From Sporopachydermia quercuum (taxonomy: Eukaryota): a stretch of 64,000 nt of DNA. Both the position numbers and the translations under genes were made by a program. Shown one piece after another: positions 7,320-60,608 of this stretch; positions within the stretch are counted from its first letter, which is position 1, and each line of letters starts with the position of its first letter. Location: positions 788,413 to 852,412 of the forward strand of contig BCGN01000009.1 in NCBI GenBank assembly GCA_001599295.1, given 5' to 3'. The notes beneath the pieces were generated by a model. That model had not been told where the DNA came from and made no database searches. It saw only the letters and a program-made list of their open reading frames with translations.

Positions 7320-8130
7320 CATGACAGACAGGCATTGCGGTGAGGATTACTATATCCTACCATAATACCCTGCAACAGTAGTTGGCGAAAATATGAAAGG
7401 TGCTTTCGGGAAGCAGCAACAAGTGTAGACAGACGCCTTAGTTTTAAATCGCCGAAGCGTATTATAAAATGGAACATATCAATATCAATGCCAATAGAGA
7501 ACATCAAATTAATGATTGAGGACGGTAAGTGATTAATGAAAAAAGAGTTGGATATCTTCAGACCAGAATTGCTCACGAAGTCTGAACTTTCTCTTGAATG
7601 GTTCAATGAATGGTTCAATTGAACGGAACATTTGGAAACCTGTGTCTACTTCTAACCATACGTTAATAAATCTTGTTGAATGATCTCCACATGTATGTGA
7701 ATGGCAAATTCCGATGAATTCATATAATAAGGGCTCAGCTGACTTATCACAAGCCTCCGCTTGGCTATCCTTCTCAGCATTGTTGAAATTGCAGCTTTGC
7801 ATCGAGAAAAGGCAATGAAAATGTGGTCAATCATATCCTCAGAAGTTCTACCTGAAAGAATAAGAAACTCATTTAATATTTTTTCCAAACAACGACTTGG
7901 TCTTGATGCAACAAATAAGCTCATCCAAATTGCCTTTGGAAGGACCGTACCAGATTCATCCGCGCATGCTTTGCAGAGTCTTCTCTAAATTTTCTCATGT
8001 ATGTATGATACGTGAAAATAAAGAACTTAGGTAAGCCAAACAGTTCGGAGATGGAAAACATCATCATAATATAGACATCTAATTTATTTAGCATGTCAAA
8101 AGACTGACGAAGGGAGTCTAACTTCAAAAT
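7320..8130 (-). mobile_element. Possible highly decayed retrotransposon Gag remnant
   Basis: Frameshifted minus-strand fragments (NLVRSFQRQFG; KILNEFLILSGRTSEDMIDHIFIAFSRCKAAISTM; VISQLSPYY) loosely resemble copia Gag helices, and they lie among clearer relics. Weak similarity, judged by eye only. Confidence 0.2.
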
Positions 8131-9482: not shown

Positions 9483-10059
9483 AGTACACTCCAGATTGCT
9501 TACTCTGTAGCCGTCGCAAGTCTTTTCTTCTCTTAATATATTGGTACACGATGGAAATTGGTAAAGCGAGTTCTACGTTATTCGCAAGGAACATCAGAGT
9601 TAGGTATACAGAACTCACCACGGNACCGCATGGAATATCGGGTTGCGTTAGGTGGATACTCTGACGAAGAGTGGGCAAAAGACCTTAAGCCTTGAAAACA
9701 TGTTTCTGGAGATGTTGTTGCTTTTGCGAAGCCACCAATTTCTTGGAGGCAAACTACTTGTTGCACAATCCGTCTAGGAGCTAGGGATGCAGGGTACTTT
9801 TTACTTACGTCCTTTCAAATGAGTACTCTTGGTTGATAAACATGATTAGTTCTATGTCATTGGAATGTAGCCGTCCTCATCGCTGATAATTATTGATAAT
9901 CAATCTGCGTTACAATTTGAGCACCACTCGGAACAGTACGTCAGATCTAAGCACATTGACACCAAGCATCAAGTTATTAGGAACAGAATTGAAGGAGGGA
10001 CTCCGGATTTTGCTAATCTTAATACAAATGAGATTNCTGCTTATATTTTGACGTTAGAT
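9483..10059 (+). mobile_element. Degenerate Ty1/copia-type RT C-terminus plus RNase H remnant (may extend upstream to ~8720)
   Basis: Manual translation gives QIAYSVAVAS..*..RWKLVKRVLRYSQGTSELGI...LGGYSDEEWAKD..*K.VSGDVVAFAKPPISW. After a frameshift it reads IIDNQSALQFEHHSEQYVRSKHIDTKHQVIRNRIEGG...AYILT. These match the copia consensus HWxAVKRVLRYLKGT / GYSDADWAGD / GGPISW / DNQSA / RSKHID / ADILTK. Stops and frameshifts are present. A purine-rich GGTGGAGGG followed by TG at 10145-10155 could be the PPT/LTR start. Confidence 0.88.
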
Positions 10060-12295: not shown

Positions 12296-12968
12296 GGATG
12301 CNTCAAAGACAAACAAACGGAATGAAGCACTTTAACACAATCAGAAATTTATTTACAAAGGAAAGGAATGATTAGAGCTATTATACAGAAATGTTATGGG
12401 TCCGTTACCACCAAATATTGATGGATCTCTGTGAAAAATACGAATGAATTAATGGTTCGGTTTAAGAATTAAGATATACTGAAATGCACACAAAACTGTA
12501 ATCCATTACAGTTGGTGTCGGAACAATGGAGGTGAATATATGTCTAATGAGTTTATGAGATTCTTGAAGACGTAGGAACAAGACATACTAGCACTTTACA
12601 GATTTCAATTAAATTGTAAAACTGAGAGGCTATATAGATCATTAATGGATTTGGGTAAGAACATTGAAGAGTCTGCATTCTTGTTAAATTCGTATTGGTA
12701 TTTTTCTTTTTCTTTGTCATACGGACCGTTCTACATGCAATNCAATCAATCGATACAAGTTAGAGGACTTTTGAACAGGTATAATGAGAGCACGATTTCA
12801 ATTATGGTAGAAGCGATCTGATTTTAAACAAAAATACCTTAGAATGTTTAGAGTGTATTATGCATGCAAACCAGATGCCAGGCAAGCCGAAGNTATTATT
12901 TTCCAGAGCAGTTAGAGGACATATTCAGGAGTCCCTTTGAATCGACTGGGATGGGATTTAGAATATAT
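12296..12968 (+). mobile_element. Degenerate Ty1/copia-type integrase remnant (Zn-binding end, DDE core, SH3-like C-terminus)
   Basis: Manual translation: GCxKDKQT (12296), LELLYRNVMGPLPPNIDG (12372), RNNGGEYMSNEFMRFLKT*...YRFQLNCKTERLYRSLMDLGK...SYW (12519 onward), RFQLW*KRSDF..YLRMF, SRAVRG, GFRIY (12954-12968). These are colinear with copia CxKGKQ / LELxHSDVxGP / SDNGGEY / PQQNGxAERxNRTL / TPxxLW..LRVFG / GYRxY. Confidence 0.88.
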
Positions 12969-13009
12969 TGCTACTGGATGTTAGTCAAACCAGTCATTTT
13001 TGGAGCATA

Positions 13010-13868
13010 GTAAACCCATAAACCTTCTAGTTTTAAGAACTAGTCTTAAGTCCGGGTCAGGCTAGTGCATATATTTCACATAACATAAAGAAAGTTATTT
13101 CAGCCCCACTATCTAGTAGTAGCAACGTACAAGTACATAAAAAAAATTTGATCTTTCGCGTTCCCTAAGTACAGTAAACACAAGATTCACATCTACTTCG
13201 TCTGGTCTATCCAAATCAGACTCTATATCATTATTCAACAATCTGAATAATCAGTAAAAGGAATAAAATAATCATCTTCTATGGAACGAGTTAGGTACCA
13301 GTGGGAAGTCACTGACTTCTTTTGGCTCATCAACAGTACAATAAACAAGCTCATNATCAAAATCATTTACAACTACCCCTTCTTGCTTAAACCACCAATC
13401 TCTTCTTGCGTCGGTTGTACAATTCTCTCTTAGGTACCCTCTCTCTTTCTTTTGACTCTTTGAAAGTTTTTGTTTGCTTCAAGATAATCTCCAGTGTTTT
13501 TTTTAGTTTTCACGAAAGCAGTAGAACTTTCTTGACCACTAAGAGGTGGAGATTCGCGCTCTGTAATATTTGGTTCTTCAACCTAAAAGGAGGAGCTTTG
13601 CTTTGAGGAAACTCCAAATTCCCCGGTCAAATTTCTGTATATTCACAGTAAATTTCAATACCATCACTCTTTGTACCATTGGGTGTTCNCGTATCATTAG
13701 AAGATCCTTTCAACCAACCAGCAGCAGTATNTGGCATTGATTCAATTAACTCATTTTGTTCTCGAAAAAGTTCTTCGTGAGTTATTAGAGTACTTTAATT
13801 TCATACAATGAACATCATGGGCGGTCTCTTGCAAAAAGACCTCCTTCTCTTTCGCATTCAAAGCATCT
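13010..13868 (-). mobile_element. Degenerate LTR-retrotransposon Gag zinc knuckle plus aspartic protease remnant (motif context more Ty3/gypsy-like)
   Basis: Minus strand 13868-13818 reads RCFECEREGGLFARDRP, a decayed CxxCxxxGHxARDCP knuckle. Downstream, 13119-13102 reads LLDSGA within TLLLLDSGAEITFF, followed by KVYGF. The gag-to-protease order is correct and there are many stops in between. Confidence 0.6.
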
Positions 13869-34225: not shown

Positions 34226-36007
34226 ATGCCCTCCGATGACGATACGAAGAAAACTCCTTTCTCCCATCCATTCTCTCAGGTATCTTTTGCCGCTGGATTC
34301 AACAACAGAGGAGCTTTTGAATGGGCAATTATTGATTTTGAAACAGAAATCAGAAACAAGCCAAACTGGTGGAATAAAATCAACGATGAGACAATCACCA
34401 ATAAATGGAGAAATGAGCTAAGAACTCAATTGCTAGAAGTCAACAGGAAGAATTTGATCCTCCAAGAAGAATTAAAAAAGAAAGCTTGCGATAGTGAAAA
34501 ACACTACTCAGAATGGGAATGTCTTCAATTCACTGATAAAAATATTGAAGATATAGCTGATTTTGCCTTCAAGGACCTCCAGGAATTCAAATCCTATGTC
34601 GTTCCATCAGAGAATGGTCATTTCGCTCCTGGAGTATTTGATGGTCTGAGCTTCATTGGATGGAATGGAATAGTTCCAAAGGAGGAGCAAATCACTCTCC
34701 AAAAGGAAGTCAGTCACTATTTAGCAGATTTAGGAAAAGAAAACTACGATTATCATCCTGGTTCTGATAATCAGGTGTTGGATATAATTCATCCTTCATT
34801 GCATATGTTGCGATATGGTAAAACACCCATTGAAAAAGATGGGGAAGTGTCAATCAGCGATTTTGACTCCTTTGGTCTTAATTTAAGAACTGCTAAGCCT
34901 TATTTCCATTCAAACGCTTTATCTAAGAATTTCCAATGGCTTCCTGCTGAGATCGACCTTTCCTCGTCTCCTAAGTTCACATCTTACATCAACAACCTTG
35001 ATCCTATCGAGAACAAAGNCTTATACTCGATACTGGAAAAGCTATTTGAATTACTACTTCCTGGGCTCAATTCTTTACTCAGATTCAACGTTCTACCACA
35101 ATATATTAGAAAAGAAATCGGTTATGAATACTACAACGAAGAATATAAAAAACGTAGCGATGAAATATCAGAGAAGCGTGATTGGGATGAATATGAGGAA
35201 GTATATGAACAAAGATCTTCTAAGGATCTTATTGATCTTATGCCAAAATTTGAACCTTGGAAGGACAAACCGGATTTTTCTCTCCAGAAAGGTTCAAAAG
35301 AATACCCTCTGGATGGTAAAGCCAAGGTTATTGTTAAGATAGGATCTATTGAATTAACACCCGAGACGCCCAAATATAAGGGAGGAAGCTGGCATTTAGA
35401 GGGAGCTGTGAATGAAGATATTGTTGCTACAGCTATTTATTATTATGACTCTGAAAATATCTCGGAATCCAGATTATCGTTTAGAGCAATGCTTGAAGAT
35501 CCTCCATATGAACAGGGCGATATATTTGCTTGTAGATATATTTGGAATCTGAATGATGAAGATGATATGGTGAGAAACGTAGGAAGCATTGATTGCTTTG
35601 AAGGCCAGGCTGTATTTTTCCCAAATGTCCTACAACATCGTGTGGAGCCTTTTGAACTAAAGGATAAGTCAAAACCTGGCCATCGGTCAATTGTATGCTT
35701 CTTTCTTGTTGACCCATATAATAAGACTGTCGTTACTACTAAGAATGTCCCTCCACAGCAAGAGGAGTGGAGAAAGAAGTACACATTTAACGACGAGGAA
35801 GTTGCCGACGAGAAATCAGAATTGCTCAAAAATTTCAAATATTTGCTCAGTGAGAGCGTCAAGAGCAAAACGGATGCTATTGCCGAGCCATGGACATTTG
35901 ACTATGCTAAAGCTCAACGCGAAGAGTTGATGAAGGAAAGAGCTGCAGAGTTAGAGGATTCTTTTGATGAGCCGTATTATAGGAGTTTTTCCTTGTGTGA
36001 GCATTGA
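34226..36007 (+). CDS. DUF4246 family protein (putative 2OG/Fe(II) oxygenase-like fold)
   Basis: First ATG is at 34226 (the ORF track starts at an upstream TTG). Motifs IRNKPNWWNKI, DYHPGSDNQVLDIIHPS, FQWLP, SYINNL, VIVK..SIELTPE.P.Y.GGSWHLEG..NE.IVATAIYYYDSENISESRLSFR, FPNVLQHRVEPFELKDKSKPGHR..FFLVDP and terminal FSLCEH. Confidence 0.82.
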   Translation: MPSDDDTKKTPFSHPFSQVSFAAGFNNRGAFEWAIIDFETEIRNKPNWWNKINDETITNKWRNELRTQLLEVNRKNLILQEELKKKACDSEKHYSEWECLQFTDKNIEDIADFAFKDLQEFKSYVVPSENGHFAPGVFDGLSFIGWNGIVPKEEQITLQKEVSHYLADLGKENYDYHPGSDNQVLDIIHPSLHMLRYGKTPIEKDGEVSISDFDSFGLNLRTAKPYFHSNALSKNFQWLPAEIDLSSSPKFTSYINNLDPIENKXLYSILEKLFELLLPGLNSLLRFNVLPQYIRKEIGYEYYNEEYKKRSDEISEKRDWDEYEEVYEQRSSKDLIDLMPKFEPWKDKPDFSLQKGSKEYPLDGKAKVIVKIGSIELTPETPKYKGGSWHLEGAVNEDIVATAIYYYDSENISESRLSFRAMLEDPPYEQGDIFACRYIWNLNDEDDMVRNVGSIDCFEGQAVFFPNVLQHRVEPFELKDKSKPGHRSIVCFFLVDPYNKTVVTTKNVPPQQEEWRKKYTFNDEEVADEKSELLKNFKYLLSESVKSKTDAIAEPWTFDYAKAQREELMKERAAELEDSFDEPYYRSFSLCEH

Positions 36008-42788: not shown

Positions 42789-45700
42789 ATGTCGTTCAAC
42801 GTTCCGACAGAGACGATGAATGCATTACTGCATTTATTAGAATCTCTAGCATCGTCAGATAATTCAATTCGTGCCGCAGCCGAGAAATCATTAGCGGAAC
42901 AATGGCTCTCGTCCGAAGGAATCCAATATTTACTTGTTGGGCTTGCAATTCAATCCGTCTCTGGTGATTCCGATAGCCTGAGATCCTTTGCTGCTGTGCT
43001 TTTCCGAAGAATGGCTCTTAAACAGCCAGAAAACTCTACAAATCCTATTGCACGTTCAATTGATGTGATTCCAGAAGCAACTAGAAGCTATATTAAGTCT
43101 ATTCTTCTATCTGGCTTTTCAGAGAAACAGTCTAATTATGTCAGACATAAAATCAGTGATGCTATCGCTGTTCTAGCTAAACCTACTAACATCAGCGCTG
43201 ACATAGAAGAAGAATCATCTGTATATATTGACACCGATTGGCCTGAGCTTTTACCTGCATTGTTTGTTGCTACTAATAACCGGGAAGACCCCAGTTTCCG
43301 AGAGTCCGCGTTCCGAATATTTGCAGCTATTTCCAATTCAATCAATCCCGGGTATCTGGATTCCATTATTCCCGTATTTGCAACAGCTTTCACTGATGCT
43401 TCCGAAGACGTGAGAATAGCCGCTATTACCGCGTTTGTTGCCTTTTTTCAAGGATTGCCGAAGAAGGCCTGGAAATCACTTACTCCGCTTTTGCCCGAAC
43501 TTCTGAACGGACTTCCTCTTTTGCTTGATTCCGGGAACGATGCTGCTTTAGGTTCTGCTCTAGAAGCATTAATAGACCTAGTAGAATTGGCACCAAAACT
43601 TTTCAAGCCGATGTTTTCGGTAATGACGGACTTCTGCATCTCAGTCGCTAAGAACAAGTCAATGGACCATGCCCGAATCTCGGCCATTATGCTGCTTATC
43701 ACCTTCTCTGACGTATCACCTAATATGTGCTCTGCTGATCCAAACTATTCCGAAGCTATCATCTTGCAATGTATTTCCATGATGACCGAAATCTCGGAAG
43801 ACGACGAATCGGCGGCCGAGTTCTTAGCTGCTTCCGACGAGGAAGACGACTCAGACGAAATAGAAGAAGCATATTCTACAGCTAGACAAGTCCTTGACAG
43901 ATTAGCCTTGAACTTAGGGTCTCCTGCAGTGCTCCCAAGCTTATACAAATACTTGCCAATGCTTCTTTCCTCAAACCAATGGCGGGAGCGTCATGCAGGA
44001 TTGATGATGGTTTCTTCAGTAGCAGAAGGCTGTCGTGACGAGTTAATTGACGATACAGAGAAAATCTTAGACTTGGTAATACCTTTAATTGAAGACAGCC
44101 ATTACAGAGTGCAACACGCATGCTGTAATGTTCTCGGGCAGCTATCTACAGATTTTGCTGATGATATCGAACTGAACTTCCATGCCCAAATCCTCCCCGC
44201 CCTGATCTCTCGCTTACAGCACGGTTTACCACCGAAAGTTCAAGCCCACGCGGCTGCAGCGTTAGTGAACTTCACGGAGAACTCCACCCAAGAAATCCTC
44301 GATCCTTATTTAGACCAATTGCTACTTGGGTTATACCAGCTTTTATCCACTGATATAGTGTATCTCCAAGAACAAGTACTCACTACAATTGCCATTATAG
44401 CAGGTGTGTCAGATAGACATTTCGGGAAGTACTATGACGGATTAATGCCAATGCTAATGAATTTCATGCGCTCAGCATCAGAAGACATGATTGGCGTACA
44501 AGCTAAATGTATTGAATGCTCCTCGTTGATTGCGTTATCTGTTGGCCGGGAAAAGTCAGGTAAAGACTGCGGAGAGCTTATGGAGATTTACGCCAGCTTG
44601 CAGAAACTTGCGGGTGGAACCGGGGCTGGAGCCGACGCCGGAACCGAAGACTCCGATGACCCCAGAGCTGCCTATTTGGACCAAGCTTGGGGCAGAATGT
44701 GCCGGTTGATCGGAAAGGACTTCCTACCATACTTACCGACAGTATTACAGCCGGTTCTCCAAATGGCTAAACGGAAACAGGACGTCCAAATCCTTGAAGA
44801 TACTACCGATGCAGAAGAACTGGAACAAGAAGAAGGCTGGGACGTTGTCGCTGTGAGAGGTAAACATTTAGGTATTCATACAGCTTTGCTGGATGGGAAA
44901 GCTTCTGCAATTAGATTATTAACTATCTATGCAGCAGCTTTGCAAGAAGACTTTGCTCCTTACACGGAAGAAATCATCCGAGACGTTCTTTTACCAGGAC
45001 TGGAATTCTATTTCCATGATGCAGTTAGGTACTGCTGTGCGCATGCCGTCCCTGCAGTATTGAAATGTATTCAACTGGCCAGACCTACTGAGGAAAAATA
45101 CTTACTAGGTCTATGGTCACCTTTAGCTGATAAGCTATTAGAAGCTTTCTACCGAGAGCCGTTAGTGGGGCTCCTTCCAATGTACTATTCATCATTTGGA
45201 AGCTGCATTGAGTTGTTTGGAGGAAAGAAACCTTATATACTAAGCGAGGCACAGCAGAAAACCTTAGGCCAGGATGTTGTGGCTAATTTGACCGATCTTC
45301 GGGCCCGAATTGATCAAAGAGAAGCCGGAGATGATGAATACACCGAAGAAGTGGAAGAAGAAGAGGACGGAGAAGAAATTGATAAAGAATTAATCGGAGA
45401 AATGAGCAAAGCCCTTAGAAATGTGTTCCGAGCAGTCGGGGAAACATTTCTCCCGGTATTTGAATCAGACGTGTTGCCGGCGATAGTGGAAGACCTCGGA
45501 GCCAACGGAAACAACTCACGAAACTTATGTCGGGAGTTTGCCCTTAGTGTTTTGGCCGATTTCACTGAAATATACGGAAGCAAATCCGTCCCGGTTTATT
45601 CCGCCACATTCAGCCGAACTCCAATCTCAGCTTACCTTTCAGATCCGGATGCTTCAGTAAGACAAGCCGCAGCCCAGTACGTTGGAAACTTGGCCCAATA

Positions 45701-46229
45701 CGGTGGTGACCAATCATTTTATCAGCCTATCATAATCTCCTGTTTACCTCAACTTTTCTCCATCATCACCGCTTCCGACGCTAAGCTTGCAAGAAACGTC
45801 GCCACATCTGAAACAGCCCATGCGGCTATCGCCAAAATTCTCCTGTCCTATTCCGACGCCGTGAGAGCTGCCGAGCCTAGCTCTTATACCCAGCTTCTTT
45901 CCACTTGGATAAGCTTCTTCCCGGTGTATGTTGAGGACAACGCAGCCCCCTATTCCTATGGATTTTTATCAGTATTAATGGACTCCAAATCAACTGGAAA
46001 ATACGTCGCGGGAGAAGAATGGAACTCAGTGATTGAATCAGCTTGGAGTAGCATTTTCCAAGGTGTTATTAAAGCTTTGAGTGTGGGTGCTATTGGAGGT
46101 AAAATAGCAGAAGGAACAGTAGAAGCTACCAAGAGATTATTGCAGACTTGCAATCCTGACGAACGAATGAGGATAGTAGAGAGCTCTTCTGATGAGTTCA
46201 AGAGGGTTATTCAGAAATGGTTTAGTTGA
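42789..46229 (+). CDS. PSE1: Importin-beta family karyopherin (importin-5/Kap121)
   Basis: 1146-aa HEAT-repeat protein: SSDNSIRAAAEKSL, RSFAAVLFRR, ARQVLDRLAL, WRERHAGLM..SSVAEGC, RVQHACCNVLGQLSTDF, VQAHAAAALVNF, WGRMCRLIGKDFLPYL, GKHLGIHTALLD.K, FYFHDAVR. Confidence 0.9.
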   Translation: MSFNVPTETMNALLHLLESLASSDNSIRAAAEKSLAEQWLSSEGIQYLLVGLAIQSVSGDSDSLRSFAAVLFRRMALKQPENSTNPIARSIDVIPEATRSYIKSILLSGFSEKQSNYVRHKISDAIAVLAKPTNISADIEEESSVYIDTDWPELLPALFVATNNREDPSFRESAFRIFAAISNSINPGYLDSIIPVFATAFTDASEDVRIAAITAFVAFFQGLPKKAWKSLTPLLPELLNGLPLLLDSGNDAALGSALEALIDLVELAPKLFKPMFSVMTDFCISVAKNKSMDHARISAIMLLITFSDVSPNMCSADPNYSEAIILQCISMMTEISEDDESAAEFLAASDEEDDSDEIEEAYSTARQVLDRLALNLGSPAVLPSLYKYLPMLLSSNQWRERHAGLMMVSSVAEGCRDELIDDTEKILDLVIPLIEDSHYRVQHACCNVLGQLSTDFADDIELNFHAQILPALISRLQHGLPPKVQAHAAAALVNFTENSTQEILDPYLDQLLLGLYQLLSTDIVYLQEQVLTTIAIIAGVSDRHFGKYYDGLMPMLMNFMRSASEDMIGVQAKCIECSSLIALSVGREKSGKDCGELMEIYASLQKLAGGTGAGADAGTEDSDDPRAAYLDQAWGRMCRLIGKDFLPYLPTVLQPVLQMAKRKQDVQILEDTTDAEELEQEEGWDVVAVRGKHLGIHTALLDGKASAIRLLTIYAAALQEDFAPYTEEIIRDVLLPGLEFYFHDAVRYCCAHAVPAVLKCIQLARPTEEKYLLGLWSPLADKLLEAFYREPLVGLLPMYYSSFGSCIELFGGKKPYILSEAQQKTLGQDVVANLTDLRARIDQREAGDDEYTEEVEEEEDGEEIDKELIGEMSKALRNVFRAVGETFLPVFESDVLPAIVEDLGANGNNSRNLCREFALSVLADFTEIYGSKSVPVYSATFSRTPISAYLSDPDASVRQAAAQYVGNLAQYGGDQSFYQPIIISCLPQLFSIITASDAKLARNVATSETAHAAIAKILLSYSDAVRAAEPSSYTQLLSTWISFFPVYVEDNAAPYSYGFLSVLMDSKSTGKYVAGEEWNSVIESAWSSIFQGVIKALSVGAIGGKIAEGTVEATKRLLQTCNPDERMRIVESSSDEFKRVIQKWFS

Positions 46230-47526
46230 TGATTAATGATAGGGTGAATAGATAAATATCTGAGTGAATTGTTACTAGGACAGTTTAAAGCGAGAAGAAA
46301 AGAAGAAAAAGAGAGAATAAAAACTGAAAGAAGTGCTTCTTTATAGGAAATATATCCCGGTGTTGTTGCAATTGATCGTATACTTGGTAGTGTGTTAATA
46401 ACAGTTGTTTGAATGTTTTTGAATGTGTTTCATAGATTGCTTGGATAAAATGGAACATGTCGAGAGATAGCGTCATACTTTTAGCTTTAATATTTGAGAC
46501 GATAATCTAGGTTGAATTACTATTTCTCCTGGTGCAGTATGGATATCAGGAGAATCTGTTGTACGTATAGTATATTTATTCCAATGTATGTGTGACACAT
46601 GAAACTAGTAAAGTATTGGCGGAACAGAGAACGAATTAGAGAACTTGGCTGTTTGATGGTTGAAACACAGTACAATATGATGTTAAAGAAGCAATGGAAC
46701 CGTCACAATGAAAGGGTGAACTGCGGAAGATTCGATGTACGTTTTCTCCTGTGTGGGAGATCATTTGATGGTCAGATAGAATCGATGGAATTCTTATAAC
46801 AGCTGCTTCAGCAGTTGATTCAACTGTTGGTTCGATAATCAATTAGAAGCAATGTTTGATCTGTTTCAATACTTGTTGTTTGATTTATTGTTTGGTTGGT
46901 ATCAATGCTTCCTAATGATAGTGCTGAAGCATCAAGTGTACTTACTAGGTACTATGTAAGTGTGGTATGTTTATACAGGCAAATGATTGGTAACATTGTT
47001 TAAATCAACACGTTTTAATACATTTTATCGTCATTTAATANCAATTGATTTAACAATTCAAGTTATAATGCTGAAAATCCAGATTTCGTTGATTTGTTTC
47101 AATGACTATTCAATCTTATATTTAGTAGCAATGTTAAGTGTTTACGTAATCTGATATTAGAGCTTGAGGAGATGCAGCTGTTGGTTTGGTTTTCCATTCG
47201 TGAAAACTAGGTAAGATTTCTAATATAGTTCTGTTCTAAGAGAGCCTATTCTTTAGGTAAACAAGCTTCACTCTACTTTTACTGAATCACCGATTACCTG
47301 ATCTCCCAATGGTCTATCGTATTCAACAGCTCATCGCTCTCTGTCCCAACCCCTCATTTGAGACATCATCCGGGTCATTTGAATCAAAGCCTGTCATTTA
47401 TGGAACCTTTTTCCTTGTACAAACTCATCGATATAAGCCTATCTGTCTCACATCGCTTGCTCTATTCACACTATGATAGTCCAAAAACGTCCGTTCTAGC
47501 CAAATGGGTCATTAATTGACTCAGAA

Positions 47527-49135
47527 ATGTTCGGCTGGAAAGATAAGAAACAATTCTTCGGGTCAGTAGACCGGTTCTGGTCTTTCTACCACCTAGAAAT
47601 CCATGACCCGAAAATCCCCCACACACTACCAGAAGCAATCAAAATGGATGAAAACGCGAGAAACAAAAACTGGACAAATGCAATAATTGACACAATTGAA
47701 GAATACACTTATAAAAACGTATGGGTGGAAGTTGACCCTAAAGGTTTGCCGTCAAATTCCCGAGTTCTCCCTGCAAACTTTCTCTTTGATTACGAGCATG
47801 TAGCCCGCGAACATATTGAACGGAAGATATGGATCACTGTAACCTCCGAGCACACTTTCCGTTCGGCTGGAACCGGCCCCGTCCCCTGTCTCGGAGGTTC
47901 TCTTCCGATTTTTTCTCGCGTTTGCCTCCCGACAAGGACTATAATTGACCAAATTCTTCATCCCAGATATCTACCTCCACGCTGATATTCCCGACAGTGC
48001 CCCGTTGTATGCCAAGATTCCGAACGTGGGGAAAACTTACCGAGGAACAACATACAGACTTCGGAAGTGTTTATACGGTCTTCCCTATGCCGACGAATGC
48101 TGGATCCAGACAATGACCGATTATCTCAAGGCTTAAAAAGGCTATGTCAACATCCCCCAGTTCCCAGGCCTTTTTTTCTTTACCTACGAAGAAGGAAACA
48201 ATTGTTTGCTCCTATTGCATCAGGACACTGTATTATTAGCTAGCAATGGTACCTTAGCATTAGGGAAAACAATGGAAGCGATGTATTCGTTGAAATCGGT
48301 TATAANAGATAATCCGTTGTTTTTCCGAGGGTTCCAGCTTCGGACAAACTCTCGGCATGAAGTGGAGATATTTCAAATTGAGAACATAGATAAAGTTTAC
48401 TCTCGGTTGAATTTAGACGATTTTGAAGAGCTGACTAGACCCGGCGGAGAATATTTTGACGTTGTTTTGGCGGGTAATAAGTCGGAAACAGAAGAAGTCG
48501 GCGAGACTCGGAAACGCAAACAAGTCTTATCTCTCGAACAGAAAGCTAAAGTTTCCGCTTTTCCTTTTAAGCAAATCATCTCCGAGCTTTCTGCTATTGC
48601 GCAAGGAACTCGGCCAGATATCGGATGGCAAATGGAAATTATCGGACAATTGGATAAACGCGATTCTAATTACAGCCTGTTGAAAGCTCTAGAACATATT
48701 TGCACTTACTTGTATGCCACCAAAACACTGTGCATAAGGTATAAGCCGTGGAATGAGGACGATTTCGGAATATTCTCGGAAGAGTTAAGCGAGCTAGAAA
48801 CCGATCCCGACTTTCCCCTTAATGAGAGAAGTAAGCTATTCCGAGAAACGGATAAAATATACGAAGAGCTGGATAAACTATTGGAAGGAGTTCATATCTC
48901 GGGATATCTCGGGTTCACCTGGCACGAACAACTCCAGAGTTTTTCCGTGGCTTCCTTATTGAGATTTGCCGGCGGACCCGTTTCATGGAAATACGAAAGC
49001 ATCGGTTATTGCTCCCGAAAGCTGATTGAAGCTAAAGCCAAGATTTTCTGCTTAGCAGATAACATATTTGTTCTGTATATGCGATTTTATATTCCATGGG
49101 AATACATCGCATGTTCGGTGTACCATCATGACTAA
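47527..49135 (+). pseudogene. Disrupted Ty1/copia-derived RT-RNase H gene; paralog of 51507-53261
   Basis: Frame 1 reads IPHTLPEAIK..NWTNAI....KNVWVEV...RKIWI. After a +1 frameshift near 47880 it reads SPVSEVLFRFFLAFASRQGL*(47942)LTKFFIPDIYLHAD...YRLRKCLYGL....CW...DYLKA*(48134)KGY...PGLF...LLLLHQDTVLL...FRGFQL...GTRPDI...LEHICTYLYATK...SGYLGFTW...FAGGPVSWK. This is colinear with copia RT/RNase H. Confidence 0.8.
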
Positions 49136-51506
49136 TAAGGAGCTGAAATATCAGGAGGTATATGCAGATCGGGACGGAAATATGACGGATCATATGAATA
49201 GCAATGAAAAGAGCGATAAAAGCAGTAAGAAGTCCCGAAAGCAGTTGGAGATGGCGANATTTCCGAGAAGCAAGTGTTTCAGAAAGCGCCAGGATCGGAA
49301 CAGGAGCCGAGAAAAGAACGGGAACAGGTGCGGGATGATGCTCGGGAAGTATCGGTTTCAATTTCAGCAGGAAAAGATCAAAGCACTAATGAACGTAATA
49401 ATAACCTCAAAATGATTAGAGAATTGAGCTATAACAACAATATAAATTGAGAGTTCCAAATATGTTATTTACGCCGGAATCCAGCGGAGAGAATTTATTT
49501 CCTGGCCAGCTTTTGATTAAAAGTTTACCCGAGCCCGAATTCCGTTATTGTTCGGCTGCTGTTGGAATGGGCAATATTTATTTGTAGTCAGCAAGGATTG
49601 GAAGGATTGGAAGAACGGAAATATATGGTAATAAGATTTACAGTATCTTGAAACGTAATGGAAATAGGAGTTAGTTAATGTGAAACAACGCAATAACATA
49701 GTAACAAAGACATAATACACACAGTTAATCTAACAAGTAGTAAACGTATTGTTTTCTTAATTTCAGCTTATAAATTGACAATGACTTGCTAGTATTAAAT
49801 TACGGTAGTGTGCAGCTAGGTAAGAATAGGGCTTATAAACTAGTTATAATTATATGTAACGGATCAGACTAACGCCTTCGTGAGGAGACTCATCAAGATT
49901 ATATTCTGTAGCGTTCCTACAGGAGTTGATGGTAAATATGGACTTTAGGGTCAACCTATTTCATGTTATATGCTATATGTTGATCGAAACGTTCACTGGA
50001 ACACGTTTCATCGCATTAAATGGTAAATAGAATCAATATGTTAACGTTCTAGGGATAGCTACATAGAAATATGGCTTCTACGTAGAAGGAGAAGCAGAAT
50101 AGCTGCAAATTATACACTGACAATTACTACAATGTAGCAACAATAGTACCAATGGGTAACTTAATGAATCTTTCAGAAGGATCAATTTACTGGCTTTTTA
50201 TGATACAACAAAGAGTAAGGAAGAATAAATAGCTCTCACATGCTGGTTTTTTNGTCTTTTCTAGAGTATTTCCGTTCAAATTAATGCATTCTACACAGCT
50301 TCTCAGTTTCACTGAATAAACGTTCTCAGCATATACAGATCTTTCGTTGTTGGGACTGAAGGTTGAGATACTACCGAGAGGTGTCTAAGGAAGATATCAT
50401 AGAATCCGCATAGCTTATCCCAAAATCCTATGAAAAGTTGGTATATGTTCGTTGATACTAATAGTAACGTAGGAACGGTAACACATCTTCCCAGCAAGCG
50501 CAATCAATGGAACCAGCGTTGTGGACAGTAAAAGGACAACGTCCTCAAAATAATGTAGAAAAGTGGACTTGTTTGAACCCTTGTTGACGTTCAGAGGCAA
50601 TTCTACAATTACCTGCTATCAATTCAGACTTCAGCTACATACTTATAATTTAATTGATGGTTATGCTTCCTTATTCTGAAACTCTTTGATAGGGGTATGT
50701 ATGTACGATAGTTTAAGCATCTGCTCTGAACTCATCAGACTTTCAACGGTTTGCACGTGAAGGTTAAACGATGCCGAAAAGTCCCCCTGTTTTGGAATAA
50801 AGGTTCCTCTTCATTTTCTCAATATTGAAGGTTTCGGATTAATTGAAAGAGTTTAACTTCTTAATTCGGCTAAGTAGTCCAAATTTGGAAACGTTTTCGG
50901 GAGTTTCAGGGATGATACTTTATCCTTAACTATTTTATCTTATCAAAAAGTCCGATGACCGGAATTAGACAATTATTCGAGAGATAAGCTAATATATACA
51001 ATTCATTGACTTTGGCCAAAAGAAAGAATAAGAAGAGAAAACCTCCAAATAAATATAAATCACCTTTCTATCTTCTATATCATTCCTTTAAAGATTACTC
51101 TCAGTGCTTTTTCTTTGATCATATCTTATCGTTCCTTCTATTACTATAATAAACTTTTTCTTGAATTCTAGAACGAACCTTATTTTTAGAGAAGTGCTCG
51201 AGTTTTGATAAGCAACGTGAAAGTCATCTCGCTAGATCAATCCTTAGTTGAATCTTTTTGCTTTTCTCTCTCCTTTATTTTGCCGCCAGCGAGTTTTTCT
51301 ATGAACAAAGCTTCGAGAATAGGCAGTTCATATAATGTATTGCTGTATGATAATAGGTAAAAGTTATTGATATTATCATCTTTTCACTGTTAGTCTCAGT
51401 GTGTTTAGGTAGCTTATGGGTAGATACGCTACCTTCATCAAATCAGCTATTTCATTATCATTAATGGCTGATTTGTATTTATGATATTTACAATAGCTGT
51501 GTAACT

Positions 51507-53261
51507 ATGTCCTCGGATAAGCTTAACCTGGTTTCAAGGTTAGAAGCTATATTGAGGTCTAATGGTAACACGACAGCTCCTAGAAGCTGTCGTGAAGCGT
51601 TGACGTGGGACAAACAGTACGATTGGAACCCGTGGCAATGCGAATATGCTAAAGAGATTGACCGTTTGGTCAAAGCTGGTGTTATTAACGTTATGCCTGA
51701 TCCTGTTGGTTCAAATGGTTTATTGCTAAGAAAAAACTATAGTGCGAAACTTGTATTTGATCAGCAGGAAACCAGATATTCTACTGATAGAAAGGTTTGG
51801 ATCATAGCTGAACCGTTGGTTAAAACCAAAAGTCCCTATGAGAAATTAAAGGTTGAGATTGATATAGGGAAAGTGTTGTTTGGTGGCAGTAATGTGGAAG
51901 ACCCATTTGTTTCCAACGAGTCTGTCAGACTAATCACAGCAATCTCTGCAAAAAGTTCACATTATATGCGTAGTTTCAATGTTATTGCTCCTGTCGGTAT
52001 TCCAGTTGATAGTTCAGAGGATTTGGGATACATCACCTTGCCTTCTATGGGAAGGGTTAAGGGAGGAACCTATAAATTGAATAAATACATATACGGTATT
52101 GATGGCTGGAAAGAAAGATGGTTTTTCTATCTGAGTAATATGCTGGAAGCTGATCTACATTTTAAGAGCTCTAGTAAGAGCTCTGGTGTTTTTCACAAAT
52201 TAATGGTTGATAATGAATCAGGTGGTGCTAAAGCTTCTAAACAGTTATTGGCCTTCGAGTACCCTGATAAACTGTTGATATCAACTGATAATTATGAACA
52301 ACTGCTTAGCACCATTTATAAATTTCCGGTTACTAGTACAGCCCTTTCTATTCCTTCTGAATTCAAAGGATTTGAATTCAGGTTTGAAGCAAATGGGGAT
52401 ATTATTTTACATCAAAGGAAAACTGTTCTCTCAATCTGTGAGACTTACGGTAAAGGAAGACTGACTCCTGTTTATTCGCCTTACGATAGATACTTTTCTG
52501 CTATTGAACAGAACGATCGCTTCTTGATTTCAGGATCTTTGGGCTACTTTTCCTATGACAATGTGCTTCGAGAGCTGATAGATGTTGCTACTAAAACTAG
52601 ACCTGATGTTTTTAGTATAGTAAGAACATTGATAAATTCACGATCGGAAATGTATGGTAATGGCTCAAAGGAAGTTTCGCACTGTCATGAAATGGCAATG
52701 AAAAGATTATTGAATTATTTATCCTATACGAGAAATTTCGCATTGGTGTATCGGCACAGTAATGATGAAGATGACGAAATGGAGGAGGTAGATGGACAAT
52801 TATCATCTGATCGACTTTGCACCTTGTCAACTGTATCGGACACGCTGCAAGGACTAGCATTTCTGTTTAATCAGCCTGTGACTGATAACTGGGAATTTTC
52901 GAGTGTAATAAATTATGGTGGAGCGATTGTTCAGTGGAGCATTCTTCAGTTGGGCTCGGACGTTGGATTCTCTGAGAAAGCAGCCGTTGTGTGTGAAAAG
53001 GAAAGTAGAAATATCACTGAATGGTTAAACGAAATGACTGTAGAAAGTAATAGGATCAAGCAAGTCAACTGGAAAATCCCAGCAGAACAATTTGAGTCAA
53101 TCAGTTCAATGTCTGGTGCTTTGAATGAGAGTATCATTTCTACNATTGAATTATCGTCGGAGAACATTTGGTCTCCTGAGATCATTGTTAAATCAGTTAA
53201 AACGCCATATTTGGCAAAGTTGAGAAGTTCTTTAGGACTTTTCGAATGTGGTAGCTCATAA
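51507..53261 (+). CDS. Intact stand-alone Ty1/copia-derived RT-RNase H-like protein, predicted catalytically dead (putative domesticated gene)
   Basis: 584-aa ORF: APRSCREAL..W..EYAKEIDRL, ESVRLITAISA, YKLNKYIYGI....RW, FKGFEF, LHQ, KTRPDV, HEMAMKRLLNYLSYT, YGGAIVQWS, ending KLRSSLGL like a copia Pol terminus. The YVDD position reads YPDK. Confidence 0.8.
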   Translation: MSSDKLNLVSRLEAILRSNGNTTAPRSCREALTWDKQYDWNPWQCEYAKEIDRLVKAGVINVMPDPVGSNGLLLRKNYSAKLVFDQQETRYSTDRKVWIIAEPLVKTKSPYEKLKVEIDIGKVLFGGSNVEDPFVSNESVRLITAISAKSSHYMRSFNVIAPVGIPVDSSEDLGYITLPSMGRVKGGTYKLNKYIYGIDGWKERWFFYLSNMLEADLHFKSSSKSSGVFHKLMVDNESGGAKASKQLLAFEYPDKLLISTDNYEQLLSTIYKFPVTSTALSIPSEFKGFEFRFEANGDIILHQRKTVLSICETYGKGRLTPVYSPYDRYFSAIEQNDRFLISGSLGYFSYDNVLRELIDVATKTRPDVFSIVRTLINSRSEMYGNGSKEVSHCHEMAMKRLLNYLSYTRNFALVYRHSNDEDDEMEEVDGQLSSDRLCTLSTVSDTLQGLAFLFNQPVTDNWEFSSVINYGGAIVQWSILQLGSDVGFSEKAAVVCEKESRNITEWLNEMTVESNRIKQVNWKIPAEQFESISSMSGALNESIISXIELSSENIWSPEIIVKSVKTPYLAKLRSSLGLFECGSS

Positions 53262-53712
53262 GACTAGCTATACATTGGATTTCATTGGGTTTTATAGAGA
53301 GATATGGAGTTATATAGGTTATAATCTGCAAATAATAATTAATCAATAATAAGTTGTTATACATCAGTTCTTTGATGCAGTTAGAGAAATTTCGGAAATG
53401 ATGTGAAGGCTGCTGATAGAGATTTTTTAATGATTATATAATCATATATTTTCTTACCTTGCGNGTGAGTTATAACACTCAACTGTAGGATTATTATACT
53501 ATATAAAATACCAATCAACTTGATATTATTTTCTGTTTAGATCTCTTTATATCTCGTTTAATTGCAATTGAGTTCCTAGTAAAATATGGATAGTATTCTG
53601 TCCATCTGTTCTCATTATCGTTCATTTCCTTTTTGATCGGTACATCCTCAACAACATTGTATCTCGCTTCAGAAGCCTCTGTAAAGCTTCATTTGACCGA
53701 CTCCATACAAAT

Positions 53713-53723
53713 AAAAAATTTTC
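53713..53723. promoter_or_regulatory. RRPE-like element upstream of PXR1
   Basis: AAAAAATTTTC about 250 bp upstream of a ribosome-biogenesis gene. Confidence 0.4.
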
Positions 53724-53964
53724 TATATTGTTTGATAAAAGCAGCCATAAGATAATATTTATTAAGCAAGATAACTAATCAGTGAAATGGTAAGCATCGA
53801 AGAGAAATATGGTTATTGAATGGGAGAAAGAGAGATATGCCTGATAACATACATGAGGTATTGCATCAATATTGATAATCTTATCTAGAATATATCTGCA
53901 GATATACACACTCAGAGACATAGACAGATTTGTATTCTATCACAAATACTATATACAAATCACA

Positions 53965-54750
53965 ATGGGATTGGCAGGAGCTAAGAAATCTACTAGAATA
54001 GCAGCAGACCCAAGAAATACACATTGGTCAAATGATACATCACGCTTTGGTCATCAACATCTAGCCAAACTTGGATGGAAACCCGGTTCTGGTATAGGTA
54101 GAAAAGGTCAAGGAAATACTGTCCATGTGAAGGTCGCTATTAAAGATGATATGTTCGGATTAGGTGCTCAAACAGCTAGAGAAAAGAAGAAAGGAAGTGG
54201 TGATTTTGGAGATGAAAGTGTGGGTCTGGATGTGTTCCAAAAGATTTTAGGTAGATTAAATGGACAATCAGAACAAATAGAAAAAGCGTTAGAAAGCAAA
54301 CGAGTAGAGCTCATTGAAGGTAAATGGGGAATGACATTTGTCAAAGGTGAAGTGCTGAAAGCAACTTGGGATGCAGAAAGTCAAACCGTGAAACGGAAAC
54401 GAGATGATGAAAGCGAATCTGATGCTAGTGAAGATGAAAAAGAGGTAGCAGATAAAAGGAGTAAGAGAGAGAAGAAGAAGAGCAAGAAGGAAAGGAAAGA
54501 AAAGAAATCAAGGAAATCAAAGAAATCAAAGAAAGGAGATAAACGGAAGAATGGTGATGAAAGTCAGAGTGAAAAAGCAAAGAATGAAATAATATCAGAT
54601 GTCCAGTCTTCCTCAATATCTCCTTCACGATCACAATCACCAGTCCCTCCTGTTGCCGCAAGATTAGCTGTGCGGTCGAAATGGATTGCACAGAAACGAG
54701 CAGCAACAATAGATGCAAAGAGTTTGAATGAGATTTTCATGATTAAATGA
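53965..54750 (+). CDS. PXR1: G-patch ribosome biogenesis protein Pxr1/Gno1 (PinX1)
   Basis: ATG at 53965: MGLAG....DPRNTHWSNDTSRFGHQHLAKLGWKPGSGIG (G-patch), GLDVFQKILGRLNG, KKE-rich region, RLAVRSKWIAQKRAA.ID.KSLNEIFMI. Confidence 0.93.
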   Translation: MGLAGAKKSTRIAADPRNTHWSNDTSRFGHQHLAKLGWKPGSGIGRKGQGNTVHVKVAIKDDMFGLGAQTAREKKKGSGDFGDESVGLDVFQKILGRLNGQSEQIEKALESKRVELIEGKWGMTFVKGEVLKATWDAESQTVKRKRDDESESDASEDEKEVADKRSKREKKKSKKERKEKKSRKSKKSKKGDKRKNGDESQSEKAKNEIISDVQSSSISPSRSQSPVPPVAARLAVRSKWIAQKRAATIDAKSLNEIFMIK

Positions 54751-55052: not shown

Positions 55053-56750
55053 TTAAAGGAACAGAACACCAGCAGTTCCTACAAACAAAGTTGAGAAGAA
55101 AGAGAAAGCCAGGATGTTCCATAACCGAACATCGACAGTACCTGCAAGATCTTCACTTTCATCGCTAGAACCAGAAGTGGATGATTCTCCTGAGCTGGAA
55201 AATGATGATCTGTCGCCGCTTCCAGTGCTAGATCCCGAACTGACAGTTGCCATTTCTCTCGCTAAACCAGTAGCTCTGGCGACAGAGATTCCACTGATGG
55301 TGCCGGTACCACTTTCACCAGCTTCAGACAACCAAGAAGAACAAGAAGATTCAACATCTTGAGCATTAACAATTTGTGCAGCGCCATCAAAGTCACAAGC
55401 AGAACTTCTTCTGTTGTTTTCTTGGTAGTATAAATTCATGACAAAAGAAAGCCTTTCTTTAGGGGAACATGGAGAAAAGGCACCATATTCACCAGTGGTA
55501 CCATTGCCAGAAATGCCATCGCAAGAGATTTCACCGCAAATGTATTGGTAATATTCTTCATAATCTTCTTCTTCAACATCATCGCTGACAACGCATTCAA
55601 GAGAACCATACATACAATCACAGACATCAACATTTGGAGGAGGAGGCAAATCGGTAGAAGCTTTCCAGAATTCCAAAGTGGATGCAGGACAAGAAATGTC
55701 AGATGTGCTAGGAGTATAGTCATCTAAGGCAACACCAGTAGGGTTGACGGTTGCCATTTGAGAAGAGAGGTATCCATAGTCGGCAAGAGTAGAGACTTCT
55801 CCATCAGGTAAAATGGTTACAATGCCATAGTTGTTTTCCTCCTCGAAATACATATAAACAATACCACCAGACCAAACATCGGTCATATTATCAGAGAACA
55901 AGACTGGGACATCAAGGAATTCTCTTGGTTGGACTTCGTTACAACCATACTCAGAAAAGAAAAGAGGAACATCAAAAACACTGAATTCTTCCGTTCTATC
56001 GGCATAGCCAGATTCTTGAAAGGTAGAATCACCGCACCATTCGTACATGTTGATACCATATATATCAGACTTGACCGATTCGTCACCACATAAGAAGTAT
56101 TCGGCAAGGTATTGTCTGGTATCGGCATCATCATTAGTGGAATAACCAACGGGGATATCTCTATAGCCCTGTTGCTTGATGTAAGCTTTGCTGTCACGGA
56201 CGGCGGCCTTGACGAATGGTGATGCATCAGTGTTTGATGCATTGTTAGTTACTTCGTTACCAGCAAAGAAACCTAAAACAGAAGGATATTCAGCCAAAAT
56301 GTCAATCACAGATGCATAACGATCAAATAAAGTCAAATCCCAGTTAGGTTGATCTCTATTTATGGAATAACCGGGTTCAGATAAATCAGCTACAATGTAA
56401 ATACCGGCATCAGCAAACATTTCAATACATTCAGTATGATCCTTGGATGTATCAATGGCGTAAACTCTCAATAAATTGGTTCTCAAGTTAATGAGATATG
56501 GCAAATCTCTTTTACAAGTTTCAGGATCTGCTAAAGGATCGTTTATAGTAACTGAACCATCCCCAGTAGCATTGGCGGTATCTTGTTGATATGCCATACC
56601 TCTGACGAAGAATTGACTACCATTGTTAGAGTAGAAGAATTTAGATCCCACAACCTCGATAGTTGGGAAACTTCCATCTTGGCTTTGAGCTGAGGTGAGC
56701 TTTGCAAGCCCAGCTAAGCATAAACCTACAGTAGACAAGGAGAATCTCAT
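55053..56750 (-). CDS. GAS1: GPI-anchored 1,3-beta-glucanosyltransferase, GH72+ with X8/Cys box (Gas1/Phr-like), copy A
   Basis: Signal peptide, [44 protein letters not shown], Cys-rich X8 domain, Ser-rich stalk and hydrophobic GPI tail. Exact ortholog (GAS1/PHR1/PHR2) uncertain. Confidence 0.88.
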   Translation of the reverse strand: MRFSLSTVGLCLAGLAKLTSAQSQDGSFPTIEVVGSKFFYSNNGSQFFVRGMAYQQDTANATGDGSVTINDPLADPETCKRDLPYLINLRTNLLRVYAIDTSKDHTECIEMFADAGIYIVADLSEPGYSINRDQPNWDLTLFDRYASVIDILAEYPSVLGFFAGNEVTNNASNTDASPFVKAAVRDSKAYIKQQGYRDIPVGYSTNDDADTRQYLAEYFLCGDESVKSDIYGINMYEWCGDSTFQESGYADRTEEFSVFDVPLFFSEYGCNEVQPREFLDVPVLFSDNMTDVWSGGIVYMYFEEENNYGIVTILPDGEVSTLADYGYLSSQMATVNPTGVALDDYTPSTSDISCPASTLEFWKASTDLPPPPNVDVCDCMYGSLECVVSDDVEEEDYEEYYQYICGEISCDGISGNGTTGEYGAFSPCSPKERLSFVMNLYYQENNRRSSACDFDGAAQIVNAQDVESSCSSWLSEAGESGTGTISGISVARATGLAREMATVSSGSSTGSGDRSSFSSSGESSTSGSSDESEDLAGTVDVRLWNILAFSFFSTLFVGTAGVLFL

Positions 56751-58916: not shown

Positions 58917-60608
58917 TTAAACAAGAATAGCACCAATACTGGTGATCATGACAACAGATAAAAGTGAAACAAGTGCGACTTCAGTCATAAGAGATGCACC
59001 TTGAGCAGAGTACCTTCCAGCAGCTGCGTTATCTGAAGTTTCACTTGAATCTCCACCAGTTGTAGATTCAGAACCAGATGATGATGATCCAGTAGAATCA
59101 GAAGATGAGTCTCCAGTATTAGTAACAGAATCCTGACCAGTGATGGTACCGGCGATAGAAGCAGTTATAGTTCCAGTACCAACTGATCCTGCATCGTCCA
59201 AAGCAGCAGAACAAGCTGATAGAGTTGTAGCATCGTCATTAATAACAGCTGAACCACTGAAATCGCAAGAATCAGACTTCTTTCCGCTACTTACATAGTA
59301 TAAATTCAAAACAAATGAAAGCTTTTCTTTTGGTGAGCAGAATGAGAATGAGCCATACTCACCAGTGGTACCATTAGCACTAATACCTGAGCAGTCGACT
59401 TCATTGCAGACGTAGCTGTATAAATCCTCATAATCATCTTCATCAACATCGTCGCTGACAACACAACCCAATGATAATTGCATACAGTTACATATGTTTT
59501 CATTAGGAGTTGGTGGTAAATCAGTAGAAGCCTTCCAGAATGCCAATGTTGATGCAGGGCATTCTAAATCAGCAGCAGTAGGAGTATAATCAGCTTCTTG
59601 AACAATTGTTGGACTGATTGATGCAATTTCACTGCTGAGATAACCAAAGTCTTCTAATGTAGAAACAGAATCACCATCGACAGAAACAAGTCCATAGTTA
59701 TTAGCTTCTTCGTAATACATATAGACAATACCACCAGACCAAATATCATCCATGTCAGATCCATACAAGGCTTGAACCTCAGTGAACTTTCTTGGCTGAA
59801 CTTCATTGCAACCGTATTCTGAGAAGAATAAAGGAATGCTTAAGTTCTTCAATTCTTCAGTTCTATCTGCGTAACCGGATTTTTCAAAAGTGGAATCACC
59901 ACACCATTCATACATATTGATACCATAGAAATCGGCTTTTTCATCGTCACTACCGCAAGCAAAATAATCAGCAATAGCAACTCTAGTATCGGCATCATCA
60001 TTAGTGGAATAACCAACGGGGATTTCTCTATAACCTTTATCTTTAATATATGCTTTTGAATCTCTTAAGGCAGCTTTAACAAAAGCAGAAGCATCAGTAT
60101 TGGTGGAATTGTTAGTTACCTCATTACCAGCAAAGAAACCTAGGACGGAAGTATAATTTTGTAGAGAGTCAATAACACTTGTGTATCTATTGTATAAGTC
60201 AACTGTCCAAGCAGGGCTATCACGATTGATTGACAGATCAGGTTCAGATAAATCAGCAATGATGTAAATGCCTGCATCAGCGAACATATTGATACATTCA
60301 CTATGGTCATTATCAGGATTGATAGCATAAACACGAATGACATTGGTTTGCAAATCCATCAAATACGGTAAATCTCTTTCACAAGCTGATCCATCGGCTA
60401 AAGGATCACTGTATGAATCACCTTCGGTCAAATTTGCTGTGTCTGCTTGATAGGCAATACCTTTAATATAGAATTGAGAACCATTGTTCGAGTAGAAGAA
60501 TTTATTACCTTTGATTTCAATTGCAGGAGTTTCAGCATCAGCTCCAATTGCAACCTGGCACAAAGCTGCTAAACAAACAGCTAAGATCAATGACAATTTA
60601 TCGATCAT
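58917..60608 (-). CDS. GAS1: GPI-anchored 1,3-beta-glucanosyltransferase, GH72+ (Gas1/Phr-like), copy B
   Basis: Same motifs as copy A ([17 protein letters not shown]8 domain, GPI tail); tandem paralog. Exact ortholog uncertain. Confidence 0.88.

Follow-up and report, generated by a model that had tools for sequence, protein, structure and literature searches.

Host genes domesticated from retrotransposons with long terminal repeats (LTRs) include the gag-derived RTL/SIRH genes, PEG10 and Arc, as well as the integrase-derived GIN1 and NYNRIN, and to our knowledge nearly all such genes originate in gag, protease or integrase. The literature on LTR-retrotransposon domestication, in the portions consulted, fits an origin of this kind (PMC3406341, PMC8321522, PMC3670739). 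The subject of the present report is ORF584, an open reading frame (ORF) of 584 codons in a 64,000-nucleotide stretch of the yeast Sporopachydermia quercuum (assembly GCA_001599295.1, contig BCGN01000009.1, positions 788,413 to 852,412; the window throughout), which by its sequence is a very divergent copia-type reverse transcriptase (RT)-RNase H. The explanation that we favor, with modest confidence, makes ORF584 a host gene, specific to its lineage and present as a single copy, whose ancestor was the terminal RT-RNase H part of a copia element (Pseudoviridae, RVT_2). Selection would have kept its frame open although it can no longer polymerize DNA. It can plausibly be described as a lineage-specific domesticated pseudo-RT gene, with a function that we can only infer.

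The nearest described relative is the RT-RNase H portion of Ty1/copia Pol. All of the ORF584 relatives that were inspected are copia pol sequences, the order and the limits of the domains are the same, and the LxKxxYG, TRPD and KRxLxYL motifs are kept. Autonomous Ty1/copia elements, however, have flanking LTRs, gag, protease and integrase coding sequence upstream, and a triad of polymerase Asp residues, whereas ORF584 is a single copy without gag, protease, integrase or LTR and has lost two of the three Asp residues. Against the RVT_2 profile it scores 30.7 bits, compared with 183-245 bits for canonical copia proteins (5/5), and a profile fails to align its RNase H part. With the domesticated LTR-retrotransposon genes ORF584 shares an intact frame taken from one part of the element, present once (at ≥85% identity) and without element termini, as is expected of a domesticated transposable element (TE). 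Those genes, in contrast, derive mostly from Ty3/gypsy elements in animals and have orthologues under purifying selection, whereas ORF584 derives from a copia RT-RNase H, resides in a yeast and is known from one genome. A possible model for its mode of action is provided by Prp8, whose RT-like and RNase H-like domains retain an RT-like fold without the polymerase residues and use it as a scaffold; Prp8 is, though, ancient, universal and very large, and has no sequence link to RVT_2.

Two further comparisons come from fungi. The closest analogue in the literature consulted is STORM, a domesticated, totivirus-derived tandem array of ORFs in budding yeasts of the genus Scheffersomyces; it is like the present locus, in the part of the source consulted, in consisting of virus-like tandem ORFs that evolve fast and asymmetrically, with one copy relaxed and the parental fold predicted (PMC13756089). 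It differs in its source, an RNA virus capsid-like gene as opposed to a retrotransposon RT, and in having four intact copies, orthologues over 15 million years and RNA-seq support. A survey of fungal host-TE fusions reports, in the sections seen, that TE-derived coding sequence is retained in the TE-poor Saccharomycotina, and names RVT_1, the gag-polyprotein aspartyl protease (PF13975), retroviral aspartyl protease and helicases (PMC10799480). In these fusions TE domains are joined to host domains, whereas ORF584 has no host domain; the word copia occurs 0 times in the main text of the survey, and its supplements might list such genes (PMC10799480). Full-text literature searches turned up no yeast host gene from a copia RT-RNase H. 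A preliminary description of this DNA, made without database searches, stated that no yeast gene of this architecture was known to its author.

The reading frame, its ancestry and its active sites

ORF584 is open from its ATG at position 51507, with a TAA codon closing the frame 45 nt upstream (Table 1). Its domain limits match those of a copia RT-RNase H, with the PxSxxEA...W...E stretch at the beginning and the natural Pol terminus at the end. The preliminary description had made the same points, namely an uninterrupted frame of 584 residues, an in-frame stop shortly upstream, a start about 24 residues before the RT region and a finish at the natural Pol end, and alignment and inspection bear them out. 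The one N in the frame, at 53144, lies in an ACN codon, which reads Thr with any base, and between 50500 and 51600 there is no TACTAAC-type branch point that would signal an intron 5' of the ATG. The segment 45001-55000 is spanned by contigs from 3/3 DNA runs, in one piece each and with 0 differing letters, and the sole difference across these 10 kb is an intergenic indel of 4 bases at 46589. The two studies behind these contigs sequenced the same organism, which may itself be the source of the window, and the contigs consequently confirm the sequence but do not amount to independent population data. None of the three runs, out of five listed, is recorded as an RNA run. Because the contigs of the two studies agree, neither the open frame of ORF584 nor the breaks in the related copy upstream, which is considered below, are assembly errors. 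At the indel, the contigs of the 2016 study are without the 4 bases that are present in the window and in the 2023 contig.

No other part of an element could be found around ORF584. When 12 long copia polyproteins were searched by tblastn, RT-RNase H matches alone reached E≤1e-3; even at E≤20 nothing collinear from gag, protease or integrase came up. The interval 46230-53964 contains 0 direct-repeat families of ≥20 nt that could represent LTRs, and there is no purine run at the ORF584 stop that could be a polypurine tract, the nearest lying 560 nt downstream. The earlier statement that gag, protease, integrase, polypurine tract and LTR are all lacking here is therefore upheld. A check of genome copy number, which the preliminary description had proposed, gave one matching contig per run at ≥85% identity among 17.1 Mb of contigs and no second copy.

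The copia ancestry of the frame can be traced in several ways. Pfam recognizes RVT_2 (PF07727) alone (E=3.1e-7), with residues 129-321 falling on profile positions 53-237, whereas a custom copia profile scores ORF584 at 113 bits. A phmmer search of 1.84e9 representative proteins gave 39 matches at E≤1e-3, with identities of 23-32% throughout. RVT_2 is present in all five of the matches that were scanned with Pfam (P0002, P0003, P0007, P0009 and P0023), four of which are full copia polyproteins, including P0002 and P0003, the best matches that are not artefacts. The top match, P0001, was discounted, since it consists of 2851 residues of repeated copia fragments that inflate its score. In the ESM Atlas, 30/30 feature matches to ORF584 belong to RVT_2 clusters. 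The RVT_2 homology stands despite a Pfam score that is below threshold, because the phmmer, ESM Atlas and custom-profile results all support it. The profile comparison suggested in the preliminary description thus recovered RVT_2, below its gathering score, and confirmed the loss of residues in the RT part.

Within the polymerase, the Asp of motif A, found in 35/35 aligned copia proteins, is replaced by Asn158 in the sequence SFNV. Motif C reads YPDK, in which the first Asp is kept as D254 and Lys255 occupies the position of an Asp that is present in 38/38 copia proteins. For both of these polymerase positions MAFFT and the profile alignment agree, with top posterior. The KARLV motif of the fingers has become KVWII, with the conserved Arg changed to Trp. 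The motifs LxKxIYG, TRPD, KRLLNYL and GGAIVQW, on the other hand, are retained. The conclusion that the ORF584 polymerase is dead is well supported by these replacements.

The RNase H part is more difficult to read. A profile made from 34 copia proteins aligns ORF584 as far as residue 426 and leaves the RNase H remainder unaligned. MAFFT pairs the first RNase H catalytic Asp with D429, which sits in an acidic insertion of low confidence, and places D429, K491 (with E490 adjacent), E527 and E558 at the four carboxylates (DEDD), although the alignment is ambiguous. Glu527 and Glu558 accordingly stand at the later Asp positions, and the catalytic Glu may persist as E490. An AF2 model, for which 38 copia homologues supplied the alignment (pLDDT 73, pTM 0.79), has strands at residues 448-455, 462-470 and 473-482, which fit an equivalence of GLAFLFN with GYSDADW without any indel and put Phe452 at the Asp position. 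The best structural matches of the model are the full-length RTs of human immunodeficiency virus (HIV) and murine leukemia virus (MLV); the model is driven by the copia alignment and hence is not independent evidence. The conserved KHID helix of RNase H lacks about 16 residues. From these alignments the RNase H is probably dead, with ambiguity in the alignment at this point.

The preliminary description had proposed, from alignment by eye, that the catalytic acids are replaced throughout. Its readings of motif A (QMDVxTAFL to SFNVIAPV) and motif C (YVDD to YPDK) are reproduced by both alignment methods, that of ADILTK as PEIIVK, an Asp to Glu change, is seen in the MAFFT alignments, and the persistence of the structural motifs LxKxIYG, TRPD, KRLLNYL and GGAIxW is likewise found. 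The proposed change of GYSDADW to GLAFLFN agrees with the modeled strands but not with MAFFT, which uses D429, nor with the profile, which leaves the domain unaligned. The overall verdict of a catalytically dead enzyme consequently holds for the polymerase, where two of three Asp residues are lost, and for the RNase H is reduced to a likelihood.

Probable constraint on the frame

Three kinds of test within this one genome bear on whether the frame has been kept by selection. Conserved columns were defined as those that are ≥80% conserved among 38 copia proteins, and ORF584 retains 34/68 of them (34/69 if the column with an X is counted). When 36 copia proteins were left out one at a time, they kept 91% of the conserved columns on average and 80% at the minimum. 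If neutral, the excess loss in ORF584 corresponds to ~0.26 substitutions per site. For each substitution per site its codons offer ~83 changes that create a stop, so that the probability of seeing no stop is ~3e-10 at ~0.26 substitutions per site, and lower with indels; the value is ~4e-4 at 0.1, 0.02 at 0.05 and 0.2 at 0.02 substitutions per site.

Codon usage provides the second test. The in-frame score of ORF584 is +0.181 bits per codon, within the range of 13 host genes (0.162-0.357), and each third of the frame has a positive value, whereas five intergenic controls, each read in three frames, score -0.26 to -0.59. A decayed copia RNase H relic near 9.5 kb scores -0.55, which is the intergenic level. 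This relic and the remains of an integrase core farther on serve as resident controls for decay, and the earlier claim that relics at 9.5-13.9 kb have accumulated stops and frameshifts is confirmed for 9.5-13 kb, where the RNase H piece has stops and a frameshift and the integrase piece has stops. The RNase H relic keeps the canonical motifs and yet is broken, and similarity to copia and intactness therefore run in opposite directions in this window.

The third test concerns the distribution of the conserved columns over the protein, which is uneven (Table 1). The difference in retention between the thumb/connection and the RNase H parts has a Fisher p value of 0.005, which the poor RNase H alignment may exaggerate. 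Together these results are good evidence, for a single genome, and suggest that the ORF584 frame has been constrained rather than decaying neutrally. The preliminary description had argued that strong divergence with an open frame points to purifying selection; this argument survives the decay, codon-usage and domain-conservation tests, but as an interpretation it is only partly supported, all three being tests on one genome.

The broken tandem copy and the competing explanations

The preliminary description called ORF584 stand-alone, which is correct as regards other element parts but overlooks a broken RT-RNase H unit at 47527-49415, here called the psi copy. It has an ATG of its own, ~30 codons before the RT start, and the same domain limits as ORF584. 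Its motif A Asp has become Phe and its motif C is HQDT, so that the same two polymerase Asp residues are lost and the same one is kept in both units, with different replacement residues. The change of KARLV to K(V/I)WI is common to the two. The identity between ORF584 and the psi copy is 16%, and their mean identities to copia are 21% and 19%, respectively, compared with an average of 31% among copia proteins themselves; each unit is thus nearer to copia than to its partner. FastTree places them as sisters with a support of 0.926, on branches of twice the usual length. Derived residues are shared in 3/24 columns, which by a rough estimate is not clearly above chance. Over ~600 codons the psi copy is interrupted by 2 in-frame stops, and its frame shifts at least twice. 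Only about four disabling lesions in a unit so diverged imply, by their number, that the psi copy was constrained for most of its history. Of four stretches of it scored for codon usage, three give +0.06 to +0.11, between the host-gene and intergenic values, and an uncertain C piece gives -0.09. The psi copy also contains a 21-nt inverted repeat (47646-47666 and 47909-47929, 86% complementary, arms 242 nt apart), which is probably due to chance.

In the course of events that we favor, a unit consisting only of RT-RNase H, with its own start codon, would have arisen once and been duplicated in tandem long ago. Both copies would then have evolved fast while their frame and fold were constrained, and the decay of the upstream copy would have begun recently. 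The ORF584 protein may be a non-catalytic scaffold that keeps an RT-like fold and whose thumb/connection region would be the binding site for nucleic acid or for a partner protein; a binding or scaffold role is favored because this region is the best conserved part. The most plausible role would be one linked to the replication or control of retroelements. The functions offered as examples in the preliminary description, a nucleic-acid-binding protein or a dominant-negative restriction factor against copia/Ty5 elements, are speculative. A more specific proposal, which we hold to be improbable, is that ORF584 and its decaying sister are fast-evolving tandem host pseudo-polymerases whose thumb/connection region binds Ty Pol, integrase or replication intermediates and so restrains retrotransposition.

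Several observations weigh against domestication. No orthologue of ORF584 has been found: the phmmer search gave nothing above 32% identity, a word-index search among proteins close to ORF584 in length gave no match, and a scan of metagenome contigs gave 112 pattern matches with 0 confirmed relatives. For the neighboring gene PXR1, used as a control, the nearest relative in the same protein collection is 51% identical and a self-match is likewise absent; the lack of an orthologue is therefore weak evidence either way. The RVT_2 score falls short of the gathering threshold of 31.6 bits. The decay calculation takes the excess divergence to have built up in situ, once the element no longer moved. 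Hydrophobic core columns are still hydrophobic in 71/89 cases in ORF584, against a background of 37%, but the broken psi copy retains them equally (76/90) and the aligner favors such matches; because the intact and the broken copy are alike in this respect, the measure is of little use for judging selection at present. That the two units group as sisters depends on both being present, since removal of either makes the other join a different long branch, as long-branch attraction could produce. Decay of the sister copy means that the family is dispensable, and the window that holds ORF584 also holds other Ty debris.

Some of these points lend themselves to a different account, in which ORF584 belongs to a lineage-specific, unusual or non-autonomous family of retroelements, or to an old Ty cluster, with the two units being two insertions and the odd Pol sequence having evolved under selection at the level of the element. 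A stretch of 6 kb contains two RT-RNase H units, further Ty relics are present in the window, the sisterhood is not robust, and more diverged paralogues may exist, as the copy search covered ≥85% identity only. Clustered Ty5 elements have, moreover, been reported at budding-yeast centromeres, in the part of the source consulted (10.1101/2025.04.25.647736). Neither unit, however, has an LTR, gag, protease or integrase, or a polypurine tract next to it, and a Pol without two polymerase Asp residues and the fingers Arg cannot replicate an element lineage. LTR elements are not normally truncated at the 5' end, with a new start codon, at one domain boundary twice, and with 16% identity the units are not recent members of one family. 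The resident 9.5-kb relic keeps canonical motifs. We regard this account as unlikely, although it is the strongest of the competitors. A little less likely still is that ORF584 is a neutral relic and not a host gene, its frame open by luck or its constraint lost very recently. The failure to find orthologues in protein or metagenome searches, the broken state of the tandem sister, an RNase H part that has diverged past profile alignment and the sub-threshold RVT_2 score are all in its favor. An open frame, though, tolerates ~0.02-0.05 neutral substitutions per site, far from the estimated excess, the codon usage is host-like where true relics are intergenic-like, and the domains are unevenly conserved. 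The version in which constraint was only just released still needs long prior selection, and is in this respect equivalent to the domestication that we favor.

It is highly improbable that ORF584 is an active polymerase or RNase H with a non-canonical active site. The motif C residue D254 is kept, and the RNase H positions given by MAFFT are all acidic if E490, one residue off, is accepted. The residues corresponding to the altered motif A Asp, second motif C Asp and fingers Arg, now Asn, Lys and Trp, are required in retroviral RT, which counts against activity. Alignment of the RNase H is ambiguous, Phe452 stands at the first Asp in the version that fits the modeled strands, and about 16 residues of a conserved helix are absent from this domain. 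If selection on ORF584 is confirmed, it would mean that a TE-poor yeast can reuse a polymerase fold stripped of catalysis, and the locus, where an intact gene is accompanied by a dying paralogue, would offer a small and genetically tractable system in which to study the function of such a pseudo-enzyme. Should selection not be confirmed, ORF584 shows how far a relic with an open frame can diverge. Were the restraint of retrotransposition true, this would be the first RT-derived, as opposed to gag-derived, retroelement restriction factor described in fungi.

Other features of the window

The features discussed above are listed with their positions in Table 1. ORF584 lies between PSE1 and PXR1, and beside PXR1 are two GAS genes in tandem, which encode proteins of 565 and 563 residues.

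Table 1. Positions of ORF584, its parts and other features of the window
Feature	Position	Strand	Description
copia RNase H relic	9495..10053	+	decayed; canonical motifs kept, 2 stops and a frameshift in ~190 codons
Integrase-core relic	12372..12698	+	weak match with stops, E 0.013-0.14
PSE1	42789-46229	+	importin gene
psi copy	47527..49415	+	broken RT-RNase H unit, in tandem with ORF584, ~4 kb upstream
psi piece 1	47527-47880	+	
psi piece 2	47882-49135	+	in-frame stops at 47942 and 48134
psi piece 3	49128-49415	+	another frame
Upstream stop	51462..51464	+	in-frame TAA closing the frame; the next ATG is the first, at 51507
ORF584	51507..53261	+	584 codons and stop; divergent copia RT-RNase H, with gag, protease and integrase all lacking
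Leader and fingers-like part	51507..51905	+	residues 1-133, leader ~24 residues; 7/15 conserved copia columns kept
Palm-like part	51906..52406	+	residues 134-300; sole Pfam match, RVT_2; 10/20 conserved columns kept
Motif A position	51978..51980	+	Asn158 for Asp
Motif C	52260..52271	+	YPDK, residues 252-255, for YVDD
Thumb/connection-like part	52407..52766	+	residues 301-420, with TRPD and KRLLNYL; best conserved, 12/16 columns kept
RNase H-like C-terminal part	52767..53258	+	residues 421-584; 4/17 conserved columns kept
PXR1	53965-54750	+	G-patch
GAS-type glucanosyltransferase	55053-56750	-	member of the 565- and 563-residue pair; Glyco_hydro_72 and X8
GAS-type glucanosyltransferase	58917-60608	-	member of the 565- and 563-residue pair; Glyco_hydro_72 and X8

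The window is budding-yeast DNA with a G+C content of 38% and the standard genetic code. A reassignment of CTG was considered and rejected by comparison of the PSE1 CTG codons with the solved Kap121 sequence. At the 11 of 12 codons that could be checked, Kap121 has Leu in 5 cases, Ile, Val or Phe in 4, Arg in 1 and Ala in 1, and CTG is accordingly read as Leu.

The copia relics lie within a region, 5600-16480, of about 11 kb without any ORF of ≥150 residues. This region could represent an old Ty cluster of the centromeric kind mentioned above. It also holds 18 of the 46 N letters of the window, including the only run of four (11518-11521); the N letters are mostly single and, judged by position without a formal count, seem denser outside genes. 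A tRNA scan of the whole window found no tRNA gene, and Rfam gave no match over 40-64 kb. A DUF4246 protein of 593 residues is encoded on the forward strand at 34226-36007 (E=6.7e-108).

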